Shown: positions 2,928 to 25,615 of the stretch, one piece after another
How positions within the stretch are numbered: the stretch's first letter is position 1
Layout: every line of letters starts with the position of its first letter
From: a virus
Lineage: Duplodnaviria; Caudoviricetes
Strand: one strand, 5' to 3'
IMG/VR virus record: IMGVR_UViG_3300027804_000205
Location: 1-25,751 of that record
DNA length: 25,751 bases
Position numbers and translations under genes: made by a program
The notes under the pieces: model-generated
Told to the model about the DNA's origin: nothing
Database searches by the model: none
The model's input: the letters and a program-made list of their open reading frames with translations, nothing else

Positions 2928-3353
2928 ATGCCAAACGTCCGCAAGAATCGCAGCATCACGCAAAGCACAGGCGGTCTGCCCGCCGTGACACCCATTGAAG
3001 TCGACCGTGTCCGCCGCTCGGTTCTGGACATCGTCCGCAACAACATCCCGACCGTCAGAGAAGTTCTCAACGGTGACAGAAGCTGGTCGAACCAGCAGGT
3101 TCGTCTATTCGGAATGATGCTCAACAAGGTGATGCCAGACCTGCACCACACATTCAATGAGCACACCATCGAAAACAAAAAGGCACACGAACTGACAATC
3201 GAGGAGCTTGAACAGATCGCTCTACAAGCCACTCAACAGTCTGAACGGGAAGACAAAGAAGAGACGATGGAGGATACTGACGACATCACCGATGCGGAGG
3301 TCATTGACGCGCTCAAGCATCATGACTCTAAGGAGGAAAAAAGTGCCATATAA
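2928..3353 (+). CDS. terS: Probable terminase small subunit (141 aa)
   Basis: AAGGAG RBS before ATG 2928. First gene of the late block, upstream of terL. Helical with an LNKVMPDL...ELTIEEL pattern and acidic tail. The call is mostly positional. Confidence 0.6.
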   Translation: MPNVRKNRSITQSTGGLPAVTPIEVDRVRRSVLDIVRNNIPTVREVLNGDRSWSNQQVRLFGMMLNKVMPDLHHTFNEHTIENKKAHELTIEELEQIALQATQQSEREDKEETMEDTDDITDAEVIDALKHHDSKEEKSAI

Positions 3354-4125
3354 CTTCCAGTCAGAGAACAGACAACTGAAGCCAAGTGAACTGGATGTCT
3401 CAAAGCTCAACCTGAATGGCGAGATGAACATCCAGTTGACACCTGAGATGGTCGCTTTTTTACGCACAAACCTAACTCCCATCGTCAATCTTCAGCAAGG
3501 CCAACCGCCAAACCACGTCTCCGGATACCGCATGTTCTCTGATGTCGGTGTAAACAGGGAGATGGATGGCTACTCCAGCATGGACTATGGATTCAAGTCC
3601 ATGGGCAGTTTCCAAGACAGACAGCAAGAGGGTCGCTTCAACCCATACGTCTCGATGAACAATCCGCTCCCGCTTCCGGTCGAGCACTATGTAAGACGAG
3701 ATGCCCCCGGAATCTCTCAAGGGCGAGACGACATGCAGAACATGTCATACAGCAACATGATGCCCGGTAGAGTTGCGGTCGGAACCCGGCTTCCGGTGTT
3801 CAACGATGCTGGGGTTGGCATGCTCAATGCCGAATACAACCGCTCAGACAAGCCTCAAGGTGGCGGCCCATCCATGGACGAACTCAGGCTCAACTTTGAG
3901 CAGGCTGTCAAGAACGGCACAATCAACGCCTATGTCTCTCGTCTTCGCAATCTCATAGGAGAAGAGGGCCAGAACTTCAACGCCACATCAGCAGGAGCAA
4001 ACATGGAGTTCAGGAACCCCGTTGGCACAAACAGCAGTCTCTCGGTCGGTGGTCGATATGACAGGTCGTCCATGGACTCAAAGCCAAACCTGAACTTTCA
4101 AGTTCTCCTCAAGAAGATGTTCTGA
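3343..4125 (+). CDS. Hypothetical 260-aa protein with outer-membrane beta-barrel-like patterning
   Basis: AAGGAGG RBS before GTG 3343; stop overlaps the terL start (TGATG). Many alternating polar/hydrophobic strands and a terminal Phe. Confidence 0.75.
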   Translation: MPYNFQSENRQLKPSELDVSKLNLNGEMNIQLTPEMVAFLRTNLTPIVNLQQGQPPNHVSGYRMFSDVGVNREMDGYSSMDYGFKSMGSFQDRQQEGRFNPYVSMNNPLPLPVEHYVRRDAPGISQGRDDMQNMSYSNMMPGRVAVGTRLPVFNDAGVGMLNAEYNRSDKPQGGGPSMDELRLNFEQAVKNGTINAYVSRLRNLIGEEGQNFNATSAGANMEFRNPVGTNSSLSVGGRYDRSSMDSKPNLNFQVLLKKMF

Positions 4126-5774
4126 TGCAGGTCTCGCCACAAGAAGCCGCCAAATATCTATTGCGCCTCAAGAAAGCGCAAACGTCTTTTCGCGAGTTCG
4201 TTCACGCAATATATCCAGACCTCAAGTGGGCATCTTTCCATTACGAACTCATGGATGCCCTCGACGCTTTGGAAAAAGGAACGCTCACCAATGCCAGTGG
4301 AAAGCAGGTGACACGGCTGCTGATCACAATGCCTCCACGGCACGCGAAGTCTTTCCTCGCAACAATCACGTTTCCTGTCTACTACCTTGCAAGAAAGCCC
4401 GTTCGAAATGTTCTCTCCACTTCATACAATCAGGACTTGGCTAAGACATTTGGACGCCAAGTTCGCGATCTGGCGCGTGAACCGATTGTTAGCCAAGCAT
4501 TCAAAGACTTTGGAATGTCGGAAGAGAGTCGGGCGGTCGACGACTGGCGTACTTCTGTTAATGGCACTTATTTCGCCACGGGTATTGGTGGCTCGACGAC
4601 TGGACGCGCGGCGACGCTCCTTCTTCTCGACGATCCAATTAAAGCCCGAGAGGAAGCAGACTCCGCAAGCCAAAGAAACAAAACGTGGTCTTACTATGTT
4701 TCTGCACTGACAACTCGTAAGCAGCCAGAGCCTGACGATACGCCGCCCATTGAGATCGTCATCCTGACCCGCTGGCATCCAGACGATGTTGCCGGTCGTC
4801 TCATGGAGACAGACGACTGGAAGGACGGCCTCTGGCATCACATTAACTTCCCAGCCATTCGTGAGACGGGCGGAGAGAAGCGCCCGGTCACAGAACTTCC
4901 AGAGGATGATCCACGCTATGTCGCGCCCGGAAAACTCTCAACGGTTGCCCCCGGCAAGCGTTACTATCGCGAAACTAAGGAGGAGGCTCTGTGGCCTGAG
5001 AGATTCCCTCTTGAAGAACTTCACCGCCGCCGCCGCCTTGACCAACGAGAATTCGCATCCCTCTACCAGCAGTCGCCGTTCATCGCAGGCGGCAACATCA
5101 TCAAGGCAAAGTGGTGGAGGTCATACAACCCAGAGCTTGTCAGACCCAGCACGGTCATCATGCTGGCCGACACCGCCTTCAAGAAAACGGAGCAAGCCGA
5201 CTACTCTGTAATCATGACCATGGGTATGGACGCTGGCGGGGACATCTTCATCCTCGACATATTGCGCGGCAAATACGAGTTCCCGGAACTCAAGCGCAAG
5301 GCCATCAACCTCAACACCATGTGGCGTGGTCGCGGACTTCGCGGCCTCTACATCGAGGACAAGGCATCAGGCCAGTCGCTCATTCAAGAACTCAAGGCAG
5401 CCTCCGGAATCTCCGTCATCCCCTACAAGGTTTCGACAGACAAGGTGTCTCGTCTCAATGCCGTCACACCATTGATCGAAGGCGGGCGAGTCCACTTGCC
5501 AGAAAGAGCGCCTTGGCTGGACGACTTCATGAACGAGTGCCAAGCGTTCCCGTCCGGCAAAAACGACGACCAAGTTGACACTTTGACCATGGGTCTGGAC
5601 ATCATGTCCCGCATGGGAGGTGTCGGATCAGAACTCATCAACGCGCCAATTGATGTTGCCACCTCCCTTTACAACCAGTTCAAGCCATTCGAGAGTTCAA
5701 CCTCGCGCGGCCCGTGGGTGGACAATGTAGGCAAGCAAAAGGCTCATGAATGGAAACCTTGGGGTGAACTGTAA
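4125..5774 (+). CDS. terL: Terminase large subunit
   Basis: Walker A-like MPPRHAKS, Walker B LLLLDDP, coupling motif LTRWH.DD, and RNase H-fold nuclease residues (ADTA..DYS, IEDKASG, DDQVD). Confidence 0.97.
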   Translation: MQVSPQEAAKYLLRLKKAQTSFREFVHAIYPDLKWASFHYELMDALDALEKGTLTNASGKQVTRLLITMPPRHAKSFLATITFPVYYLARKPVRNVLSTSYNQDLAKTFGRQVRDLAREPIVSQAFKDFGMSEESRAVDDWRTSVNGTYFATGIGGSTTGRAATLLLLDDPIKAREEADSASQRNKTWSYYVSALTTRKQPEPDDTPPIEIVILTRWHPDDVAGRLMETDDWKDGLWHHINFPAIRETGGEKRPVTELPEDDPRYVAPGKLSTVAPGKRYYRETKEEALWPERFPLEELHRRRRLDQREFASLYQQSPFIAGGNIIKAKWWRSYNPELVRPSTVIMLADTAFKKTEQADYSVIMTMGMDAGGDIFILDILRGKYEFPELKRKAINLNTMWRGRGLRGLYIEDKASGQSLIQELKAASGISVIPYKVSTDKVSRLNAVTPLIEGGRVHLPERAPWLDDFMNECQAFPSGKNDDQVDTLTMGLDIMSRMGGVGSELINAPIDVATSLYNQFKPFESSTSRGPWVDNVGKQKAHEWKPWGEL

Positions 5775-5781
5775 GGACGAC
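5775..5781 (+). promoter_or_regulatory. GGACGAC intergenic motif (candidate late promoter element), before portal
   Basis: Starts immediately after the terL stop; the same 7-mer occurs at 13896, 15266 and 21714. Confidence 0.55.
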
Positions 5782-5812
5782 AGCCAACCCCAATTTGTTG
5801 GATAAACAGACC

Positions 5813-7711
5813 ATGAATTATCGTGACATCAGACAATCGGACGACAGTCTTATCGTGGACTTATCAGAGCACGTCAATGCTCTGATGAACTACGACGACA
5901 TCTCCGACCTCCTAACAGACGAGCAAGAGCGCAAGCTCATTGACTTTATTCGCGCCTGCTCGAAGATGTCGTGGGATCGCATCCGCCGCCGTTACGACCA
6001 CTGGCGCGACGCAGACCGCGCGCACGATGTTTGGGTTCCTGCGGACACAACCAAGTTCCGCGAAAAAGTCGTCATTGCTGATACCCGCGCCATCGCCGAC
6101 ACAGTCCTCACCTACCAGATGGCTGCCTTGGCTGGTCGCAACCCAATGTTCCAGCTTGAGGGCTTGAATCGCAAGTCGCGCCGCGCCTCCCTGATTCTTG
6201 AGCGCATGCTGCACCAACAGATGCGCCGCACCGCTGGCGAGGCACGCATCGCCCAACTTCTGCTTGACAGCCTGCGCTACGGCTTTGCCCCGACCAAGAT
6301 CGTCTGGGACGCAAAGACCAACTCAAACCAGATCATCAACTTCGATCCACGCAGGGTTTTCCCTGACCCCCGTGTCAACTGGGGTGAGTGGGATCGCATG
6401 CAATACATCATCTTCAGCGACTTCGTCTCGACCAACGCGCTGATTTCGAGCGGCCTGTATCCCAAGCTCAACAAGTATCCCGGCCTGCGCAAGTCCATCC
6501 ACCGCGCAACTTGGTGGGACGCTCACAACTACTGGAAGGAAGAGGGCCGTGGTCTGAACATCAATCAGTCCATCGACCGCAACTCCGGCTCAAACGGCTA
6601 CCAGTTCACCCTCGACCCAGCCCGAACATTGGATGAGTGCTGGATTCGTCTCAACGGATTCGAGATCGGCATCCCGAGCATCGAGCAAATCTGGCTGGTC
6701 TGCGCCGTCTTGGACGAGCACGCTGTCATCCGCTTCCAGTTAAACCCCTACGGTCAGCAGTTCCCGACCACGATTGGCGGTCTCTACTACGACAGCCACA
6801 AAACTTACAGCCAGTCGCTCTACGACCTGCTGCTTCCACTGCACGAGGTCTCGACTTGGCTGCTGCGCAGCCGTATCGACAACGTCCAAGCCGCGCTCAA
6901 CAACCTCGTCTTCGTTGACCCGACGCAGGTATCCGTCCCAGACTTGATCGACCGCAACCCATGGGGCGTGGTTCGCACAATGCCGGGTGCAAAGCCCGGT
7001 GACGGCGTGTTTATCGCCGAGATTCCGGACGTAACCCGTGGTCACTGGAACGACATTGCAGCCATGTCTGACCTGAAGCAGCGCATCTCCGCCGCCAGCG
7101 ATGCCCAGCAAGGCGTTCCAACCAGCGACGGCATCCGCACCGCAACGGAAATTCAGCGTCTGACGCAACTCGGCTCACAGCGCCTTGGCGTTCTGGCTCG
7201 AGTCATGTCGGCAACGACTGTCCGCCCCATGGTCAACATGATGGTCGCCAACATTCAGGATGCCCTGAACGTCGAGGGCAGCCTTCGTCTCAACCAACAA
7301 GATGCCCCATCCGAATTGACCCGCATGGTTCAAGACGGCTATGTCGACTACGACAGCACCATGCTTCAAGGAGAAATCGACTACCTTGTGGTCGACGGAA
7401 CGCTGCCCATCGAACCAACCCGCAACGCCGAGACTTGGCTGAACATGATCCAGATCATGGGTCAGTCCGGCCTCCAGATGGAATACAAAATGGGCAAGAT
7501 CGCCGAAGAGGCTATCCGCGCCATGGGCGTTAGCGACCTTGACCAGTTCAAAATCACCAAGGAAGATCAGGCCAATGGCCCGTCTCCGTCTCAACAAATG
7601 GCGCTCATGGAAAAGATGCGCGGCGCTTCTGTCATGCCAGAAGAACAAATTGCCGCAGAAGCCCAGAAGGGCAACATCATTCCGTTGAGCCAAGCACAAG
7701 GAGGTAGATGA
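5813..7711 (+). CDS. Portal protein
   Basis: About 630 aa directly after terL. Podovirus portal-like segments (FPDP, SQSLYDLLLPL...RIDNV, RTATEIQ) and a Gln/Met-rich helical C-terminus. ATG 5813 is preferred over TTG 5795. Confidence 0.9.
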   Translation: MNYRDIRQSDDSLIVDLSEHVNALMNYDDISDLLTDEQERKLIDFIRACSKMSWDRIRRRYDHWRDADRAHDVWVPADTTKFREKVVIADTRAIADTVLTYQMAALAGRNPMFQLEGLNRKSRRASLILERMLHQQMRRTAGEARIAQLLLDSLRYGFAPTKIVWDAKTNSNQIINFDPRRVFPDPRVNWGEWDRMQYIIFSDFVSTNALISSGLYPKLNKYPGLRKSIHRATWWDAHNYWKEEGRGLNINQSIDRNSGSNGYQFTLDPARTLDECWIRLNGFEIGIPSIEQIWLVCAVLDEHAVIRFQLNPYGQQFPTTIGGLYYDSHKTYSQSLYDLLLPLHEVSTWLLRSRIDNVQAALNNLVFVDPTQVSVPDLIDRNPWGVVRTMPGAKPGDGVFIAEIPDVTRGHWNDIAAMSDLKQRISAASDAQQGVPTSDGIRTATEIQRLTQLGSQRLGVLARVMSATTVRPMVNMMVANIQDALNVEGSLRLNQQDAPSELTRMVQDGYVDYDSTMLQGEIDYLVVDGTLPIEPTRNAETWLNMIQIMGQSGLQMEYKMGKIAEEAIRAMGVSDLDQFKITKEDQANGPSPSQQMALMEKMRGASVMPEEQIAAEAQKGNIIPLSQAQGGR

Positions 7712-8495: not shown

Positions 8496-10724
8496 ATGTC
8501 AACAGCATCGCTTCGCGAACTCGTAGAAACCATCAAGACCCGTGGCACGTCTCTAGCCGCAGCCACTGGCGCATCGTCCGCGACACCGCGTGACCTTGTC
8601 TATCTCTCGACAGCCGTTGAGCGCCTCATGGGCGCAGACGCTTTGCTCGAGTTAATTGACACTGCGGCAAGGCCAGCGGAGGTGATCCTTCAGCCCGCCC
8701 CCGGGACTGCGGTCATTACCCTGACAACTGACCAAGTTCAAAAAGAAGTCATTGTCGTCAAGCCAGATACGGGCACTTTCACCGCCTCCTTTGTGAGCGT
8801 CATTGCTCCGAATCGCGGCTGGTCTAGCGTTGTTGACAACCGCCTGACCATCCCCCTCCGCGTCAAAACTTCGACCCAATCTGACTATGTTCAGATTGCT
8901 GCTGGTCAGCGCGGTTGGCTCTACTGCGATGGAACCGATGTTGAATTTGTTGTCGACATTGCCGCCATCACTGCCGCACTCACCACCCCCATGACAACCA
9001 ACGGCGACATGGTGGTGTTTGCTGCTGGCGCGCAGGCTCGCCTTAGCGCTGGTGCAGAAGGCTCCATGCTGACAATCAAGAGCGGCGCTCCCTCTTGGCA
9101 GTTCTCCGGCGCAAAGCCGCATACCAGAATCCGCGCACTGAACAACAACTACGTTGGTCAGAACCCAGACCTCTCGGTCAACAAAGGCGGCAAATACACG
9201 CAGTCAGATGGCTCCCAAGCCTCAACGCCCACAACAATTTCAACAGTCCCGACCAACCGCCTTGGAAACTACATTGAGGATGCCACGACGTTCCCTGTTG
9301 CAGCCAATGCCGGAACTTGGGATGTTGTGCAAGAACCCGGATATTCATATCGCGGTGGCTCCGTAGTCGCATTTGATGGCGGATTTTGGGTTTGGGGTTC
9401 CCCATCAAATGGTCGAAATGGGGACATCAGTGGAACTGCTCGCATTCCTGTGCGCCCTCCACTGTTCAACTACACAAACGAAGGTATTGAGTTCTCCGAA
9501 GACGAAATGTTTGACATCAAGCAGGTCGTCTCAGCTTACGAATACACCGCCGTTGTGACAACAGACGGCACTGTTTATAGCTGTGGCTACGGTGTAAACG
9601 GACAGCAAGGTGACGGCGGCATTGTGAGTCGCTCCTTCTTCCGTAAAGTCGATTTCCCAATTGATGCTGGCCCAGTGCGTTATCTGCATGTTCAGTTCCA
9701 TGGCGCGAGCACCCTTTCCGTCTACGCACTCATGGAAGACGGAGATGTTTACTCTTGGGGCTACAACAACTATGGTCAGCTAGGCCATGGCGACACGACC
9801 AACCGTTTGACCCCCACAAAGATCACCGTTTTTAACCAAAACGTTCGATGTGTACGCACTGGCGGTTACCACGTTGCCTTCATCACCAATGATAATCAGC
9901 TTTACCTTTGCGGCCTGAACACCAGCGGTCAATGCGGCAACGGCACTGTAACCAACCTCTCTACTCCTACGCTGTGCAACATTGGCGGCGCGGTCGTAAA
10001 AGTTGCAATTTGTGGAGACTCTGCCAACGCCAACGGCTGGACGCTCGCCTTGCGTGCTGATGGTCGTTTGTATTCATTTGGTTACAACGGCTATGGTCAG
10101 TTGGGCGACAACTCTGCAACTTCTCGTTCTACTCCGACACAGGTGAACGTGATTGGCGTAGATACCAACAAACGCGTCATCGACTGCTGGTGCGGCGGTG
10201 GCGTTTACGGTTCGTCTGCCGCCCTGTGCGAAGACGGCACGTTCTACACATGGGGTCGAAACAACGTCGGCCTGCTTGGCTTGGGCGATACAACTGATCG
10301 CGCCGTCCCCGTCCTCAACCAAAAGGTTCAGTGGGTATCTGATGTTCAATGGGCTGGTCAGACCACCAGCACCAGCTACTACTACAACAACGTTATTGTC
10401 ATGGCACACGCCAGCAAGAATGACCGCATCAACCGCCGCAACGGCGCTGCCTTTACTGCTGGTCATCAAAACGTTTGCTTGGGTCGCCCGAACACGGCTT
10501 CTCCTCAGACTCAGTTTGGTCGAGTCGGTTTTGCAAATCGCTCTGGCAACCATCTCAGATATATTTCCGCTCAAGGCTATCACTCAGGCGCTACTGTTGA
10601 AAATGCTTGGATGGCTTTGGACGAAGAGGGCGTTGTCCACTGGGTTGGCTACGACGCTGGAAACTACATGTCGGGCCGTCCAGATGGCGCGAACACATAC
10701 AACGCAGTTCAAGTTTTGATTTAA
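8496..10724 (+). CDS. Tail fibre/receptor-binding protein with RCC1/BLIP-II-like beta-propeller
   Basis: AAGGAG RBS. Fibre shaft motif TTNGDMV....ARL..G..G..L.....P.W, then repeated RCC1 units (VYSWGYNNYGQLGHGDTTNRLTP, LYSFGYNGYGQLGDN, FYTWGRNNVGLLGLGDTTDRAVP). Confidence 0.85.
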   Translation: MSTASLRELVETIKTRGTSLAAATGASSATPRDLVYLSTAVERLMGADALLELIDTAARPAEVILQPAPGTAVITLTTDQVQKEVIVVKPDTGTFTASFVSVIAPNRGWSSVVDNRLTIPLRVKTSTQSDYVQIAAGQRGWLYCDGTDVEFVVDIAAITAALTTPMTTNGDMVVFAAGAQARLSAGAEGSMLTIKSGAPSWQFSGAKPHTRIRALNNNYVGQNPDLSVNKGGKYTQSDGSQASTPTTISTVPTNRLGNYIEDATTFPVAANAGTWDVVQEPGYSYRGGSVVAFDGGFWVWGSPSNGRNGDISGTARIPVRPPLFNYTNEGIEFSEDEMFDIKQVVSAYEYTAVVTTDGTVYSCGYGVNGQQGDGGIVSRSFFRKVDFPIDAGPVRYLHVQFHGASTLSVYALMEDGDVYSWGYNNYGQLGHGDTTNRLTPTKITVFNQNVRCVRTGGYHVAFITNDNQLYLCGLNTSGQCGNGTVTNLSTPTLCNIGGAVVKVAICGDSANANGWTLALRADGRLYSFGYNGYGQLGDNSATSRSTPTQVNVIGVDTNKRVIDCWCGGGVYGSSAALCEDGTFYTWGRNNVGLLGLGDTTDRAVPVLNQKVQWVSDVQWAGQTTSTSYYYNNVIVMAHASKNDRINRRNGAAFTAGHQNVCLGRPNTASPQTQFGRVGFANRSGNHLRYISAQGYHSGATVENAWMALDEEGVVHWVGYDAGNYMSGRPDGANTYNAVQVLI

Positions 10725-19676: not shown

Positions 19677-20795
19677 ATGGCATATCTACCTGACATACCC
19701 GGACAGAAGGAAATTGCATCCTTCCCTTGGCATGCTGTCAAGAATGATGTCATTGCCTCAAAAACTCAACCCGGTGACTTGGTCATTCCGAAGCAGGTTC
19801 TTGATTCAAACCCAGACATCGCCACGCTGGCACAAGCAGCCATCCTCCAAAAAGGTGGCCTCCCAAGCAACTACATTGCTGGCGACCCGAACGGCATGTA
19901 CAACCCATACACCGGAGAGCAACACTTCGGTTGGTTTGACAGCATTGTCCGCATTGCTGCGCCCATTGTGGGCTTTGCCATTGGCGGCCCAGCAGGCGCT
20001 GCCGCAGCTTCAGCGGTAGCCACCAAGGCCACCGGCGGCTCTTGGGAAGAAGCAGCACTAGCCGCAGGTACTTCATACATTGGTGCTTCAATGTCTGGCG
20101 GCACTACCGCTGCCGCAGGCGCGGATGCGGCAGCCGCAACAACAAATGCAGCCGCCACCGAGGCCGTCAAGCAGGGTGGCGTTGCCGCATACGGGGCAAA
20201 TGTCGCCGGAAGCGCCGCCACAAATGCCGCCGCCAGTACGGCATCTCAAACTCTTGGCTCCAAGTTGGCTGAGTGGGGAGCGGGAGAGGGGCTTTCCTCT
20301 ACATTGGCAAAGGGTGCAACCAGTGTCATCAATTGGCTGCCGGATGCGAGCGCCAAGGCTGTTATGGGTAACACCATGGGACAGCTTGGTAGCGTTGCTT
20401 TGAACACACAGCTTGCAAGCGGCATTGGCGCTCTTGCCATGAACATGGGCGCAGAGAAGGCTGCCGACCAATATGAGCAAGCCATGAAGAACTCTGTCAA
20501 TCTCCCCGGATCAGCAACTCCAAGGGCGCTACCGGGCGCAACAGCAATGAACTTCTTGCCATTCTCTGAGGCCATTAACAGCACATCTGCTGGCGGCGTA
20601 ATTGGTGGCGCTGCACCCTACGCGAGTGGCGCAAGCATCACTGGCATTCCGGGTGTCAACATGCTGAACGAGGTCAAGAACAGGGACACTGGTGCTGTCT
20701 CGTATCAGTCCACACCATACGACTCCGGCTCATTTGCAAACTCTTTGTCTCGCGGTCGTCGCACCGGGTGGGGACAAAACGTGGTCTACGCATAA
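19677..20795 (+). CDS. Putative internal virion/ejection protein (372 aa)
   Basis: TAAGGAG RBS. PGDLVIP...NPYTGEQHF followed by an amphipathic helix and Gly/Ala-rich hydrophobic segments. Confidence 0.65.
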   Translation: MAYLPDIPGQKEIASFPWHAVKNDVIASKTQPGDLVIPKQVLDSNPDIATLAQAAILQKGGLPSNYIAGDPNGMYNPYTGEQHFGWFDSIVRIAAPIVGFAIGGPAGAAAASAVATKATGGSWEEAALAAGTSYIGASMSGGTTAAAGADAAAATTNAAATEAVKQGGVAAYGANVAGSAATNAAASTASQTLGSKLAEWGAGEGLSSTLAKGATSVINWLPDASAKAVMGNTMGQLGSVALNTQLASGIGALAMNMGAEKAADQYEQAMKNSVNLPGSATPRALPGATAMNFLPFSEAINSTSAGGVIGGAAPYASGASITGIPGVNMLNEVKNRDTGAVSYQSTPYDSGSFANSLSRGRRTGWGQNVVYA

Positions 20796-20804
20796 GGGTA
20801 AACC

Positions 20805-21254
20805 ATGAAAGTAAGGCCAGCAACTGAGACGGACATCGAAGCATGCCTTCGTCTTGCCGAACAGTTTTGGCATGAGAGCATTTACAAAATGGTCTCGTTT
20901 GACCCCGTTAAGTCGGTGGCCTACGGGAAGAACGTGATCGAAAATCCATGGACTCTGTTCTGGGTTGCCGAGGATGCGGGGGTGGTAATTGGATTCGTCA
21001 TCGCGCATTTGGAGAACCCCGCATTCAGCAACGACATCATGGGTGTTCACGACTTCTTGTTTGTCAACAAAGACGACCGTGGGCACATGGCTGGTATACA
21101 GTTGATGCGTGTCTACGATCATTGGGCAAAAGAAAACGGCGCTGTCATCGCAACCTTTGTTCCGTCGGGAATGGGGCTAGACCCAAGGTGGGAATCGTTT
21201 GCCAGCCATCTTGGATTTGAAAAAACCGGCCTCTACTTCAGAAAGGAATTTTGA
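20805..21254 (+). CDS. GNAT-family acetyltransferase-like protein
   Basis: MKVRPAT..D start, WVAED.G.VIGF, LFV....RG..AG..L (acetyl-CoA motif A), and LGFEK end. Confidence 0.88.
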   Translation: MKVRPATETDIEACLRLAEQFWHESIYKMVSFDPVKSVAYGKNVIENPWTLFWVAEDAGVVIGFVIAHLENPAFSNDIMGVHDFLFVNKDDRGHMAGIQLMRVYDHWAKENGAVIATFVPSGMGLDPRWESFASHLGFEKTGLYFRKEF

Positions 21255-21255
21255 T

Positions 21256-21714
21256 ATGTTTATCATGACCGATGCGCTTGCAGATGCAATTAGAAAAATG
21301 ACCGCTGGTACTGGCACTGCCCAGCCGCAAGAAGCTCCCCCTCCACAATCTGGTGGAATGTTTGGAATGATTGTTCCGCTCGTCATGCAAGTTCTAAAGC
21401 AGCAGGCTTTGCAGCAGAAACAATCGCAGGCAGCAGATCAAAAAATGGTTTTTTTGGACGACTCAAAGCCCTACATGAACCCAAACGTTCAGTCGGGGCC
21501 AGCGATTACGCCAATGGCAATGCAGATGCAAAACACAGCGCCAGTTCCATTCCAGCAGCCAGCGGCAATGGGTGGCGCGGGCAGGTCAGCAAGCTATCAA
21601 AACTCGTTTGCCCCATCCATGAACCCAGTGCAAAAGGGTGGCAACAGCACCTTTTCGTCCGGCTTTACAAACGAGCCTCAGTCTGGCTGGGGGTCAAAAG
21701 TTCTTTTAGGGTAG
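21256..21714 (+). CDS. Low-complexity Gln/Pro/Met-rich putative internal virion protein (152 aa)
   Basis: AAGGA RBS before ATG 21256; carries the shared C-terminal GWG motif. Confidence 0.65.
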   Translation: MFIMTDALADAIRKMTAGTGTAQPQEAPPPQSGGMFGMIVPLVMQVLKQQALQQKQSQAADQKMVFLDDSKPYMNPNVQSGPAITPMAMQMQNTAPVPFQQPAAMGGAGRSASYQNSFAPSMNPVQKGGNSTFSSGFTNEPQSGWGSKVLLG

Positions 21715-21720
21715 GACGAC
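21714..21720 (+). promoter_or_regulatory. GGACGAC intergenic motif, before the distal ejection-protein genes
   Basis: Overlaps the last base of the TAG stop; TATCGT lies 18 nt downstream. Confidence 0.55.
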
Positions 21721-21772
21721 CAAAAATCGTCTTAGTAGTATCGTTGAGACAATCTTGTAAAGGAGAACCATC

Positions 21773-22525
21773 ATGAGTCTAGGCGGAGGCGGAGGCGGAG
21801 GCGGATCACCCGCACCCTCACAACCAACCCAAACCAAGCCCTCTACACCACAGCCAGTGAGCACTCAGTTCCTTGGTGGGGGCGCTACAACCCCAACCAC
21901 ACAAACGGCACAGCCACTTGACTTCTTGCGTCAGGCCATGGCGGCAACACCAATGGCTCAAGCCCCTTCAATGGGCAGCTATTTGGACGATGCCAAGAAG
22001 AAAGAGCGCATGCCTGAGTTCATGGGCGGCACACGTCAGGTTGCTGGTCAAGGCCAAGCGCCGGGGATGATGGTCGACCGCCGTGCTGACTTGCGTTCCA
22101 TGGTGAGCGCGGATGTCGGCACAGCAGTTCCGTCAGCCGAAGGCTTGCCTCCTGCTACCTACGCTGTTGCACCGCAAAATTTTGCTGGCAACCCACCCGG
22201 CGGCGAAGGCTTTGGTCGTCGCGCCCTGATGGGAAGCGAGGGTCAGGTCGTCACTCAGGCTCTACCGGCAGACACAGTTCAGCAGACTGAGACACCATCC
22301 GTCTTGCCTGCTGGTGATGTGGCTCCCGTTGGTCAGCCGATAACCCCAAACCAAGCTGTTGCCCCGGATGTAAACTACGTTCTGTTGTCTCAGCAGGGGC
22401 AGCAAGGCGTTGGTTTTGTCCCCGGCTCGAAGTTGGCAATGCAAGTCGCGACAGGCCCGTTCTCTCGCTATCTGCAAAACCCGCGCATGGGCAGGGGCTT
22501 TGGCTCTCGCATGATGAGCGTCTAA
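21773..22525 (+). CDS. Low-complexity Gly/Pro/Gln-rich putative internal virion protein (250 aa)
   Basis: AAAGGAG RBS; N-terminal MSLG8 run; carries the shared C-terminal GFG motif. Confidence 0.7.
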   Translation: MSLGGGGGGGGSPAPSQPTQTKPSTPQPVSTQFLGGGATTPTTQTAQPLDFLRQAMAATPMAQAPSMGSYLDDAKKKERMPEFMGGTRQVAGQGQAPGMMVDRRADLRSMVSADVGTAVPSAEGLPPATYAVAPQNFAGNPPGGEGFGRRALMGSEGQVVTQALPADTVQQTETPSVLPAGDVAPVGQPITPNQAVAPDVNYVLLSQQGQQGVGFVPGSKLAMQVATGPFSRYLQNPRMGRGFGSRMMSV

Positions 22526-22537
22526 GGAGCACTTGAC

Positions 22538-23335
22538 ATGGCTATCGGCTCATTTCTTGGAAACGTAGGTAATAAGCTCATTGGCGGAGAAGCTGGTGGC
22601 TGGGCGCAGATGCTCGGTCAAGGCTTCGATGTCTTCCAAGCTGATGCAAACGCACGCCAAGCAGATGCAGAGCGCCAAGTTGCTTTAGCCAATCAAGCCA
22701 AGTATCTCGAATACATGATGCAGACCGATTCTCAGAATCGGGCTGACTACCTTGCACTTCGGGACAGGCTTCTTGAGGAGTCCTCAAACTTGAACGCCGC
22801 CATGCAGCAGGCGTACAACTATTTGGGGACTCCCTACAACGTCAATCCGTCTCAGATTCAAAAGGATTATCTGACGTTGCGCGAGCAAAATTTTGGCGAC
22901 ATCAACAAAGCTGTCAATCTGGTGTCTAGTCGCACATGGGCTGGCAACATTGCCAAAGGCATGGGCGAAAGCACGCTGAACAATGATCAGCAGACTGAGA
23001 TCGTTTCGAAGTTCATGCCTGAATTCCAGAAGGCTGATCAAGCTGCATACGATCAAGCTCTGCAACGTTCCGCGTCCATGCAAGACACAATCCAGAAAGG
23101 CAGAACGAATCTGCTCAACGAAGTTGGCACTGTATACGGCACGCAATTCAACGCAGAGAAAAACCTCTTGCCGCAGCAAAGCTCCGCGCTTGCTCAGAGC
23201 GTTAACCAAGGATACTCGGACTTGTCCAAGAGCTACACGACTGCATCTACCGATGCGAACAAGTATGCTGGCTGGACAACCGCAAGCCTTGATGAAAAGA
23301 TTGGTTCGATCTTGCGCCAGATGGCTGGCAAGTAA
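22538..23335 (+). CDS. Putative DNA ejection/pilot protein (265 aa)
   Basis: TAAGGAG RBS. Gly-rich amphipathic N-terminus (MAIGSFLGNVG..IGG..GGW) followed by Gln/Ala-rich helices. Confidence 0.65.
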   Translation: MAIGSFLGNVGNKLIGGEAGGWAQMLGQGFDVFQADANARQADAERQVALANQAKYLEYMMQTDSQNRADYLALRDRLLEESSNLNAAMQQAYNYLGTPYNVNPSQIQKDYLTLREQNFGDINKAVNLVSSRTWAGNIAKGMGESTLNNDQQTEIVSKFMPEFQKADQAAYDQALQRSASMQDTIQKGRTNLLNEVGTVYGTQFNAEKNLLPQQSSALAQSVNQGYSDLSKSYTTASTDANKYAGWTTASLDEKIGSILRQMAGK

Positions 23336-23350
23336 TTTCAGGGGAAGACG

Positions 23351-25615
23351 ATGGCACGCAACTATGCTGGCTACATAGAGGGTTGGGAGGAAGGAAAAAA
23401 ATTCCTTCGCGAGCAACGCTCGGAAAACGCCAAAGCGTGGCAGATGTTTATCGACGAGGCCACAAAAAACGACACGCCTCTGACGGCAGAGGCGCTTGAT
23501 CAATTCCGCTCGTCAATCACTGGTGGAGACCCTTACTTCTCTGATGCTCTGCCATCAAAGTCGATGATGCAGACTATCGCTGGCAATCAAAACCAGCGCG
23601 TCGTCTCAAACATCCTCGAGAGAACGACAAAAGACTTCGAGAACAACAAGAAGCAGTTGGACACTGGCGCTGCCTTCATTGGGATTTCCGATACTCCTGA
23701 CATTGCCCAACAAAAAATTAATCAAGCATTCGGCCCACAAGCAGGAGCTACTTGGTGGTCAAAGCACGGCAGCAGTCTTGAGGAAATTCAAACCAAGAAG
23801 CTAAATGATCGAGTATCTGAACTCATCACAACACCTCGGTTTACAAACGCAAACGATCCAAAAGACATCGACGCTCTTTTTGAGAAAGAGCCTGCAATCG
23901 TGAAGAACGCTTTGCGTCAGTCCATGACTGATCGCATGGAAACTCAACGCAAGACTCAGATTCAGGCTGCGTCTCAGGCCATCGAGACGTTGAATGATCC
24001 AACCATGATTTACATGGACGATGCTGCTTTGAAGAAGCGCGTTCAAGGAATTGCATCGGCGCATGGATTAAATAATCCAACCGATCAGGAAACCAATCAG
24101 CTTATTGCTGCCTTAAAAAATCGCAGAGACGTAACAAACTCTGCGGAGAACGCTCGAAAAGTCAAAGACCTGAACAACCTGTTGACCGCTCCAGACGGTG
24201 AACTCAAGTCCCTTCTTGAGACGTATCGCGGTCAGGCAATGACTCCAGACATGATGCTTGACATCATCAACAACGCATCTGCACGAGTCGGCATGCAGCG
24301 TTTTGCCACTATCGAAGAAGCACGAAAAGTTCTTGGAACAGACTTCGAGCAAACATTCACAAGAATGCGTGCTCGCTTCGACTTCCAGCAAAGTCAGGCA
24401 GCCGCAACACAGTACGGTCAAACTCAAGCAGAAGCGTATTTCGACAACTTCAAGATCAACGTCAAGACGAGTGTCAACAGCGCCGTTCAAACCGGAACAC
24501 TCAAGAAAGATGGCCCAGCCTATTTGGCCTTGGTCAACCTTGTCGAGCGCGGATTGTCGACAGACGCTCCGCTTGATGATGTCGTTAAGACGGCGGCTCA
24601 ACTTGAAAAGGGAGCAGACAACGCAGAGGTTGTTCTGGCTGGCCTGCAAAGAAGGTACATGTGGCGCACCAAGCCGGAGCTTGCCATCAAGTATTCGTCT
24701 GAGCACATGGCTGCAAAGGGCGTGGCGGTTCGCCCCGGCGAGTCCGTCAATCGTCACGTCTCAGAGTCTCATGAACTTGTGAGCAAACTTATCAGCAACC
24801 TGATGACCAAAATCCAGAACGATGGCCCAGCCAACTGGAATGGCTCTGCGTACACAAAAGAATTTGCTGCTGAGATTGAGGCGAACAAGCAAAACATTCG
24901 CACCATCGTCAGCAACATGCGCACTAAATGGAGTTCCGGTGAACCGGCAAACTTTGCCGAGTACGGAACAACCATTCAGTTCACTGTCAAAAACGCAGAC
25001 GGCTCAACTAGAGTCGGGACGGGAAGCGTTCAAGACTACTTGAACCAGCAACTCATCGAATACGACAAGATGGTCAATGGCATCGACTCCAAGATCAGTC
25101 GCATTGATCACAGCAAAACGCCAACCAAGGCTATTCTTCCGACAAACGAGCAGGCTCGCAACAACTCAACCATCAGTCAGTCCGTCACTGATGACCCGAA
25201 GAAAACTGCTGTTCAAAATTGGTCTGAAAGACAAGATCGTGCAGGCAATGCAACCACTGCTCTTAACTCGGCGATGGGTGTTTACTCTGGCTTCTACGGC
25301 CCATACGACAGACTCATGCGTAAAGAAGCCGATGTGCAAAAGCTCGGATTCAAAAATTTTGAAGAATTTGATGCTTGGATTGATCGAATGGGCGGAGTTG
25401 GCACTGTTGGTTCATCTGCCGGATCAAACAATCAGCATCTAGCTGCTTACCTTACATCCCACCCAGATGAGTCAAAGCTCCTTCAAGAACTTGCGGCAAA
25501 AGCTCGCGAGACTGGAGACCTTCGCCCCATCACTGAACGCCTGCGCCTGCTAGAAGAAAATGTCAGGACAGGCGGAGGAGCAGTCCCCCGGGCAAATCTG
25601 CCCGGGGGAGGTTAG
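23351..25615 (+). CDS. Large helical putative internal virion/ejection protein (754 aa)
   Basis: Long ORF in the internal-protein position; predominantly helical composition; no catalytic motif recognised. Confidence 0.7.
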   Translation: MARNYAGYIEGWEEGKKFLREQRSENAKAWQMFIDEATKNDTPLTAEALDQFRSSITGGDPYFSDALPSKSMMQTIAGNQNQRVVSNILERTTKDFENNKKQLDTGAAFIGISDTPDIAQQKINQAFGPQAGATWWSKHGSSLEEIQTKKLNDRVSELITTPRFTNANDPKDIDALFEKEPAIVKNALRQSMTDRMETQRKTQIQAASQAIETLNDPTMIYMDDAALKKRVQGIASAHGLNNPTDQETNQLIAALKNRRDVTNSAENARKVKDLNNLLTAPDGELKSLLETYRGQAMTPDMMLDIINNASARVGMQRFATIEEARKVLGTDFEQTFTRMRARFDFQQSQAAATQYGQTQAEAYFDNFKINVKTSVNSAVQTGTLKKDGPAYLALVNLVERGLSTDAPLDDVVKTAAQLEKGADNAEVVLAGLQRRYMWRTKPELAIKYSSEHMAAKGVAVRPGESVNRHVSESHELVSKLISNLMTKIQNDGPANWNGSAYTKEFAAEIEANKQNIRTIVSNMRTKWSSGEPANFAEYGTTIQFTVKNADGSTRVGTGSVQDYLNQQLIEYDKMVNGIDSKISRIDHSKTPTKAILPTNEQARNNSTISQSVTDDPKKTAVQNWSERQDRAGNATTALNSAMGVYSGFYGPYDRLMRKEADVQKLGFKNFEEFDAWIDRMGGVGTVGSSAGSNNQHLAAYLTSHPDESKLLQELAAKARETGDLRPITERLRLLEENVRTGGGAVPRANLPGGG

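Follow-up and report, generated by a model that had tools for sequence, protein, structure and literature searches.

The locus studied here raises the question of why a podophage would carry, between the genes for its terminase subunits, a protein that is predicted to resemble the wall of an outer-membrane barrel and has no signal for export. The window, by which we mean the whole stretch of 25,751 nucleotides analysed, is assigned to a CRP-810-type freshwater podophage by conserved synteny and its core TerL, portal and capsid genes. PHROGs and Pfam searches identified TerL, an SU10-type portal and capsid protein, an RCC1-repeat protein and a GNAT. Among cultured phages the closest is Roseobacter phage CRP-810, which matches the window in gene order and shares 56% (TerL), 71% (portal), 61% (capsid) and 50% (nozzle) identity with it. 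The CRP-810 family is temperate, its isolate and named prophages belong to marine bacteria including Roseobacter, SAR11 and Sphingomonadaceae, and the portions of its description drawn on here mention no barrel-like protein (PMC11288001). Half or more of the window is present in 15 sequencing runs (10 freshwater metagenomes, three crustacean and two marine), and four of the 10 freshwater runs are possibly the source of the window DNA. Weak host hints come from TerL relatives filed under Neomarinimicrobiota and Gammaproteobacteria MAGs (L090, L091) and from a partial barrel homolog filed under a Burkholderiaceae MAG (P0026), all possibly binned phage contigs. A divergent control region, in which a GGCTGACT core recurs and several inverted repeats are GC-rich, lies between the leftward genes and the late operon (2410-2928), and a 742-aa RCC1-repeat protein occupies the tail-fibre position (8496-10724); L010 has two RCC1-like genes in tandem.

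Table 1. Features of the barrel gene and the adjoining terminase genes, in window coordinates.
Feature	Position	Strand	Basis
Likely small terminase subunit, 141 aa	2928..3353	+	Position; 37% identity to CRP-810 gp62
Shine-Dalgarno AAGGAGG	3330..3336	+	Sequence; 6 nt 5' of the GTG
Signal-less amphipathic beta protein, 260 aa; predicted outer-membrane-barrel-like wall	3343..4125	+	ORF, model, alternation statistics
Residues 1-20, polar low-confidence N-terminus, no signal peptide	3343..3402	+	Model pLDDT, hydropathy scan
13 predicted strands in a meander, residues 24-260	3412..4122	+	DSSP on the model; face analysis
Signature P-Y...H-[WY]-[VI]-R-R-D, residues 101-122	3643..3708	+	Most conserved, least hydrophobic strand region
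Last amphipathic strand, residues 249-260, ending in invariant Phe; beta-signal-like, out of canonical register	4087..4122	+	Alignment
Large terminase subunit	4125..5774	+	PHROG 38, E 8.7e-112; 55.6% to Roseobacter phage CRP-810 TerL

The barrel gene is translated without interruption from a GTG at 3343 to a TGA at 4123-4125. An earlier note on this DNA, made from the sequence alone, described a strong ribosome-binding site and an overlap with the terL start; both are present, the stop codon and the terL ATG having base 4125 in common, and all eight peptides quoted in that note occur in the 260-aa translation. The start lies inside the upstream ORF, which it overlaps by 11 nt; the AGGAGG is retained in L004 and L006, and the same start codon position is an ATG in six relatives with 70% identity. 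GC content (0.52, GC3 0.64) is in line with the neighbouring genes. An assembly artefact is excluded by a contig from an independent run that crosses 3102-4625 with two differences; related-strain contigs in two river RNA runs cover parts of the gene, which is not evidence of transcription. Codon comparisons indicate purifying selection, with dN 0.229, dS 1.46 and dN/dS 0.16 between the window and L004, and dN 0.012, dS 0.213 and dN/dS 0.06 between L004 and L006. These ratios bear on the idea of a decaying host porin that has lost its leader. That the barrel gene is the most divergent of the packaging block (70% identity vs 89-99% for its neighbours) would suit such an origin, but the gene is under selection and intact in members down to 26% identity, and no named bacterial family is among the matches in 1.84 billion representatives; the idea is largely refuted, and we regard it as extremely improbable. 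Compared with L013, the window is mosaic: within 2928-7711 the identities are 91% (terS), 70% (barrel), 89% (terL) and 98.6% (portal), with 93-100% for most downstream genes and 87% for the 7708 ORF, which suggests that the packaging block was exchanged as a unit.

The earlier note placed the gene between terS and terL. The assignment of terL stood (Table 1); that of terS follows from position, the upstream ORF having no meaningful family match in Pfam and PHROG scans. The survey of terS-terL inserts that the note had called for was made on TerL relatives in IMG/VR: the best 80 of 249 were taken, partial rows and rows without a terS homolog were dropped and identical ones merged, leaving 54 distinct rows. 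Among these rows from the best 80 of 249, the terS homolog overlaps or abuts terL in 30, other genes fill the slot in 20, and the barrel gene fills it in four, which represent two lineages only, L010 and the window's clade. Most inserts of other kinds encode small proteins with no assigned function, many of them basic, apart from one pair of 290 and 103 aa (L046:856-2110), in which the larger protein has an HExxH-like motif and neither has a significant Pfam or PHROG match; in CRP-810 the slot holds a 74-aa gene. In L054, L055, L057, L061, L062, L064, L067, L077 and L090 it holds one to four small, strongly Lys/Arg-rich genes (including phrog_7595, 27331 and 23735, with no function assigned) whose products are possible DNA-binding head cargo. 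The four carriers are not monophyletic (p-AU 0.0023 in a quick tree of a 26-row TerL subset), and non-carriers surround both the window's clade and L010, which has a barrel of 26% identity; on this tree the barrel gene is present in two separate lineages, presumably either gained twice or lost often. A profile of the protein found it in three of 48 whole records, in a loose first look that could miss distant copies, and a similarly loose search found it in one of the six IMG/VR records that are at least 90% complete and gave no match in CRP-810.

The slot is thus a variable one, and the barrel gene is an optional passenger of the late operon. As most close relatives lack the gene, its product is unlikely to be an essential form of the entry pore put forward in the earlier note. 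The gene lies before terL, outside the likely ejection-protein cluster (about 19.7-25.6 kb), and the likely ejection proteins of the window have counterparts in the complete relative G001, so DNA entry is probably independent of it. The cluster itself (19677-25615) appears to encode internal virion proteins, with Ala/Gly-rich, Gln/Pro-rich and helical products around the GNAT; in the equivalent region of G001 two GNAT-like genes lie in tandem and one protein exceeds 2,000 aa. A homing nuclease or a packaging role is rejected for the barrel protein, given the lack of any motif or family match and the direct joining of terS to terL in most relatives.

The protein belongs to a family with no name of its own. 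When 5.8 billion clustered proteins and 1.84 billion representatives were searched, two clusters of 13 and 46 members proved close and seven others more distant (P0004-7, P0009, P0010 and P0050), the weakest at 26% identity; P0008 (E 1.4e-4) was dropped as spurious, being repeat-rich and matched over 29 residues. Family members are 218-260 aa long from the conserved start, free of Cys, leaderless and terminated by Phe. Columns invariant among 29 aligned sequences include P34, G83, G88, Y102, R118-R119-D120, G147, R167, D169, P176, G192, G218, P248 and F260, with Y102, R118, R119 and D120 of the signature conserved in all 29. The window protein has no match in Pfam, PHROGs or NCBIfam, and its best E against PDB sequence profiles is 0.93; this leaves no homolog of unrelated function, such as the homing nuclease that the earlier note had considered, in any of these collections. 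Family scans gave other members weak single matches only (E 0.047-0.18), and none of the seven members scanned has a Pfam match at E up to 1. No relevant match to P0004 was found among 50,697 phage records that would provide a cultured carrier, and when the fetched loci were scanned for ORFs resembling the family in C-terminus and alternation, one unrelated-looking ORF came up beyond the family.

The barrel-like character of the protein is first evident in its hydropathy. Its period-2 alternation reaches z 3.6, a value attained in none of 500 shuffles, and its alternating windows number 13, where shuffles average 5.6. It is the only one of 19 window ORFs tested with significant alternation (lowest p among the other 18, 0.08), and six homologs give z values of 2.1-3.6. 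AlphaFold with a 7-sequence alignment reached pLDDT 64 and pTM 0.42; with a 29-sequence alignment it reached pLDDT 77 and pTM 0.63, all five models lying at 73-77, and produced a meander of 13 long strands. The alternation that the earlier note had seen by eye is thereby borne out; its count of 10-12 strands is not.

All 50 matches listed for the better model in two VIA searches are membrane beta-barrels, and no soluble fold is among this top 50. The highest are CymA (Z 14.1, rmsd 6.5 Å, 227 residues aligned), OmpG (Z 14.1), CdiB (Z 13.7, rmsd 4.9 Å, 223 aligned) and FhaC and TamA (both Z 13.5); the 12-strand NanC is lower (Z 10.8, 169 aligned). The best matches thus have Z about 14 and rmsd 5-7 Å, no one barrel family predominates, and the model superposes on 14- to 22-strand barrels at 4.3-10 Å. 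Foldseek with the same model gave nothing at E 0.001 or better (top match OmpG, E 3.9e-3, TM 0.42). The first, shallower model superposes on its matches at 3-13 Å (pTM 0.42), and a Foldseek search against viral models, made with that model only, gave nothing at E 0.001 or better. For an independent Atlas model (pTM 0.57), the matches are ten bacterial clusters with TM 0.52-0.65; the majority are named as outer-membrane barrels, and the best balanced match is SlipAM (TM 0.65/0.61, model-to-model).

The ranges aligned to 14-16-strand barrels cover about 13 strand positions at rmsd 4.5-7.5 Å; for OmpG (from residue 30), BamA (433-776) and TamA (274-546) we take them to be about 13 strand positions each. 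On our reading, the model looks like a wall of 13 strands, with the polar strand 113-121 counted in and the first strand of a 14-strand barrel missing. Such a wall could close only through a parallel seam, by one more strand drawn from residues 1-23, or with the help of another copy or of a barrel of the host. Members of the P0007 group seem to contain a further hairpin, which keeps the strand count odd. Of the closed, lipid-facing barrel foreseen in the earlier note, the barrel-like amphipathic fold is thus supported by the model and the closure is not, which goes part of the way toward the outcome that the note itself held to count against its proposal.

The distribution of residues points the same way as the fold. 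One face has 61% large hydrophobic and 3.6% charged residues (477 cells, eight sequences) and the opposite face 14% and 28% (638 cells, eight sequences), statistics that are partly circular because the faces were assigned by eye. In the topology adopted, which replaced an initial one of 12 strands, the last of 13 strands ends on the inner side. This makes the links on the C-terminal (inner) side short (0-7 residues) and the outer links long and variable (1-10, 9-21, 5-9 and 6-17 residues; overall 1-21). Lys and Arg on the hydrophobic face occupy 37 of 285 cells in its outer half and 12 of 270 in its inner half; Arg119 and Arg167 of this face are invariant, and its basic residues typically lie two positions after an aromatic one (Y165-x-R167, Y239-x-R241). 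In outer-membrane proteins the periplasmic turns are short and the outer loops long, and basic residues that face outward contact LPS. Under the 13-strand reading, the predicted loop lengths and outward basic residues match this polarity; several C-terminal strands are short in distant family members.

These traits weigh on whether the protein enters a membrane at all. An open sheet, soluble or bound to the virion and wrapped around lipid, LPS or a partner, for example as a head or tail accessory, would explain why the model appears open and why the polar H-W-V-R-R-D strand is the most conserved segment, and it would sit well among slot genes that otherwise encode small basic proteins with no function assigned. 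The loop polarity, the basic residues that face outward and the Phe kept at the C-terminus are, however, traits of membrane barrels, and the VIA top 50 for the better model includes no soluble fold; we therefore consider this reading unlikely.

A second possibility is an attacin-like pore-former that is freed at lysis and inserts from outside into the outer membranes of Gram-negative cells nearby, killing competitors or sensitising hosts. Two members only 27% alike each score 0.93 for the Attacin_C cluster (168 and 172 of 256 features) and 0.91 for the gloverin cluster in the Atlas, and an odd strand number would place the N-terminus of the barrel protein outside. Disruption of outer membranes has been shown for one attacin, which is predicted to form an amphipathic sheet and a porin-like trimer, in the part of that work consulted (PMC10690985). 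Attacins and gloverins (PF03769, PF10793) are likewise Cys-free, Gly/Asn-rich amphipathic beta proteins; they differ in being smaller and secreted with a pre-pro leader and in giving no HMM match to the window protein, so the likeness is one of features, not of homology. The Attacin Pfam models (PF03769/PF03768) give no match at E up to 1, the Atlas rates the high attacin score as weak evidence for P0007 (recognition 1604), the feature match may mirror merely Gly/Asn-rich amphipathic strands, and the net charge of the protein is near zero (K+R 26, D+E 26). We judge attack from outside to be quite unlikely.

The lack of an export signal, as claimed in the earlier note, holds at every start considered. 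In our own hydropathy scan of all in-frame starts in three lineages no signal-like hydrophobic core was found, the best 8-residue Kyte-Doolittle mean being 0.24-1.64 and the longest stretch without D, E, K, R, N, Q, H or P two to six residues; CRP-810 gp53 (L011:11261-12016; annotated 'OmpA family protein', with a hydrophobic leader and no Pfam match at E 0.01), taken as a leader-bearing control, gives 1.86 and 12 residues. The frame is open upstream of the barrel start for only nine more codons in L004 and five in L010, so no conserved leader could be encoded there. None of nine family members has a hydrophobic core in its first 40 residues, and a lipobox is ruled out by the absence of Cys. 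Model pLDDT is below 50 over residues 1-17, and residues 1-20 could conceal one more short strand.

The C-terminus departs from the usual pattern in another manner. Phe260 is invariant in all 29 aligned sequences, including relatives down to 26% identity. The beta-signal consensus, as given in part of PMC10629564, is hydrophobic-G-hydrophobic-x-Y-positive-F, and the family does not conform to it: among nine members Phe is terminal in all nine, an aromatic residue is at -3 in none and Gly is at -6 in none, the window protein having Lys and Leu at these positions. Gly is found at -8 in six distant members and Tyr at -5 in seven, so that the G/Y pair is shifted two residues inward. The aromatic BAM signal described in the earlier note therefore survives as a terminal Phe and not as a canonical beta-signal. 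Ten other barrel types have other motifs (PMC10629564, seen in part), which makes recognition by BAM compatible with, though not established for, the barrel protein.

Three routes to the membrane could serve a leaderless protein: ejection from the virion, passage through holin lesions, and release followed by attack from outside, discussed above. It is tentatively proposed, as the explanation we favour though possible rather than probable, that the protein travels in the virion, is ejected into the periplasm and enters the outer membrane by way of host BAM, with the tail taking the place of Sec. The barrel protein would be expressed late and likely packed unfolded into the head; on the next infection it would be ejected into the host periplasm, and BAM would place it in the outer membrane where the phage enters. 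The wall might there be closed by the protein's own N-terminal segment, by another copy of it or by a barrel of the host, and the protein could ease entry into some hosts or immediately block later phages. A tail acting in place of Sec would account for a leaderless family in which the terminal Phe is always kept. Ejection is favoured by the coupling of the gene, through overlaps, to the packaging and virion operon and by the terminal Phe, which BAM could recognise from the periplasmic side and which persists in members as little as 26% identical. Disordered internal proteins of podophages are ejected into the envelope, according to the parts consulted of reports on P22 (10.64898/2026.09.03.749273) and SU10 (PMC9509320). 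Against ejection stand the distance of the gene from the likely ejection-protein cluster, a wall that looks one strand short of closure, the departure from the canonical beta-signal and the shortness of several C-terminal strands in distant members. The N-termini of the family are also unconserved, so a packaging tag is not evident by eye; an L-[SA]-D-A-[IL] stretch noticed near the N-terminus of P0007-type barrels (L010:9435) and of ORF 21256 is a by-eye candidate for such a tag and is absent from the window's own barrel.

The second route would make the protein a lysis aid, which would accumulate in the cytoplasm, reach the periplasm through holin lesions and there weaken the outer membrane by forming a pore or jamming BAM, replacing spanins or acting beside them. 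For a leaderless late-operon product a holin alone would suffice for access to the periplasm, and G001 has a holin and an M15 peptidase with no spanin detected by Pfam in the three lysis-region ORFs scanned. The barrel gene is, however, distant from the lysis cassette and unmatched in five of the six near-complete IMG/VR relatives and in CRP-810, and BAM-dependent folding seems slow for lysis, all of which leaves a lysis role distinctly improbable. A Lom-like moron, an outer-membrane protein that masks a receptor of the cell during infection or lysogeny and is exported along a route not recognised so far, would be in keeping with the temperate CRP-810 family (PMC11288001, in part) and the integrase of G001, and Lom is cited as blocking LamB in the part of 10.64898/2026.10.24.761521 drawn on here. 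The absence of a signal peptide speaks against this reading, and no promoter- or terminator-like site was found flanking the barrel gene on the + strand, which together with the overlap-coupling to the terminase genes makes lysogenic expression unlikely; we hold it to be very improbable.

Among described barrels, the monomeric 14-strand OmpG (2f1c/4ctd), CymA (4v3h) and predicted SlipAM/Slam and the 16-strand Omp85 barrels CdiB, FhaC, TamA and BamA have in common with the modelled protein an amphipathic up-and-down meander, a similar curvature (Z 13-14 over 200-230 residues) and a terminal Phe. The window protein differs from them in being leaderless, in having about 13 strands, 4-11% identity and no profile match, and in being encoded in a phage late operon. 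No Pfam match to Slam/SlipAM (PF04575) was obtained for any of seven members at E up to 1, and the N-terminus consists of 20 polar residues with no TPR or signal. Bacterial outer-membrane barrels normally reach the periplasm via Sec.

Phage-encoded outer-membrane proteins are already known, and those we found described, in sources seen in part, bear signal peptides. Lambda Lom, DUF680/IPR056410 and the huge-phage OMPs are likewise phage accessory barrels, and the cyanophage DUF680/IPR056410 protein is also incomplete, a six-strand barrel with predicted dimer closure that is sometimes encoded in virion-assembly loci, as far as the text consulted reports (10.64898/2026.10.24.761521). The largest survey found, of 1,603 huge-phage OMPs, kept only those with signal peptides according to the same partial text, so that signal-less barrels would have been missed by design. 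Delivery of signal-less proteins from head to envelope is shown for P22 gp7/gp20/gp16, SU10 gp20-24 and crAss001 gp45/gp46 and only proposed for the window protein. crAss001 gp45 has a predicted transmembrane helix and the trans-envelope channel of P22 is described as helical in the part of that report consulted (10.64898/2026.09.03.749273), whereas the window protein is all-beta; unlike the podophage ejection proteins, it is also optional (four of 54 TerL rows), and its gene lies apart from the likely ejection-gene cluster of the same phage. The literature searched, which took in few subscription papers and no bioRxiv supplements, gave no account of a phage barrel that is signal-less and delivered by the virion.

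We conclude that the barrel protein represents a real, new protein family and a predicted new form of phage outer-membrane barrel, for which we infer the delivery route. A broader and more doubtful proposal is that signal-less, odd-stranded, attacin-like barrel walls carried in virions form an undescribed phage class that would bypass Sec, hijack or plug BAM and thereby reshape the outer membrane only seconds after adsorption. Of the 30 Atlas clusters nearest to each of two members, 26 are unnamed, and those shown are all viral; with so many unnamed clusters, the class may be large. If the proposed delivery is true, membrane barrels would have a second delivery route, and the protein would be the beta-sheet counterpart of helical ejection pores. 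It would also be a possible natural client or inhibitor of BAM that is brought in by a phage, and the barrel protein of the window is small and easily tested.
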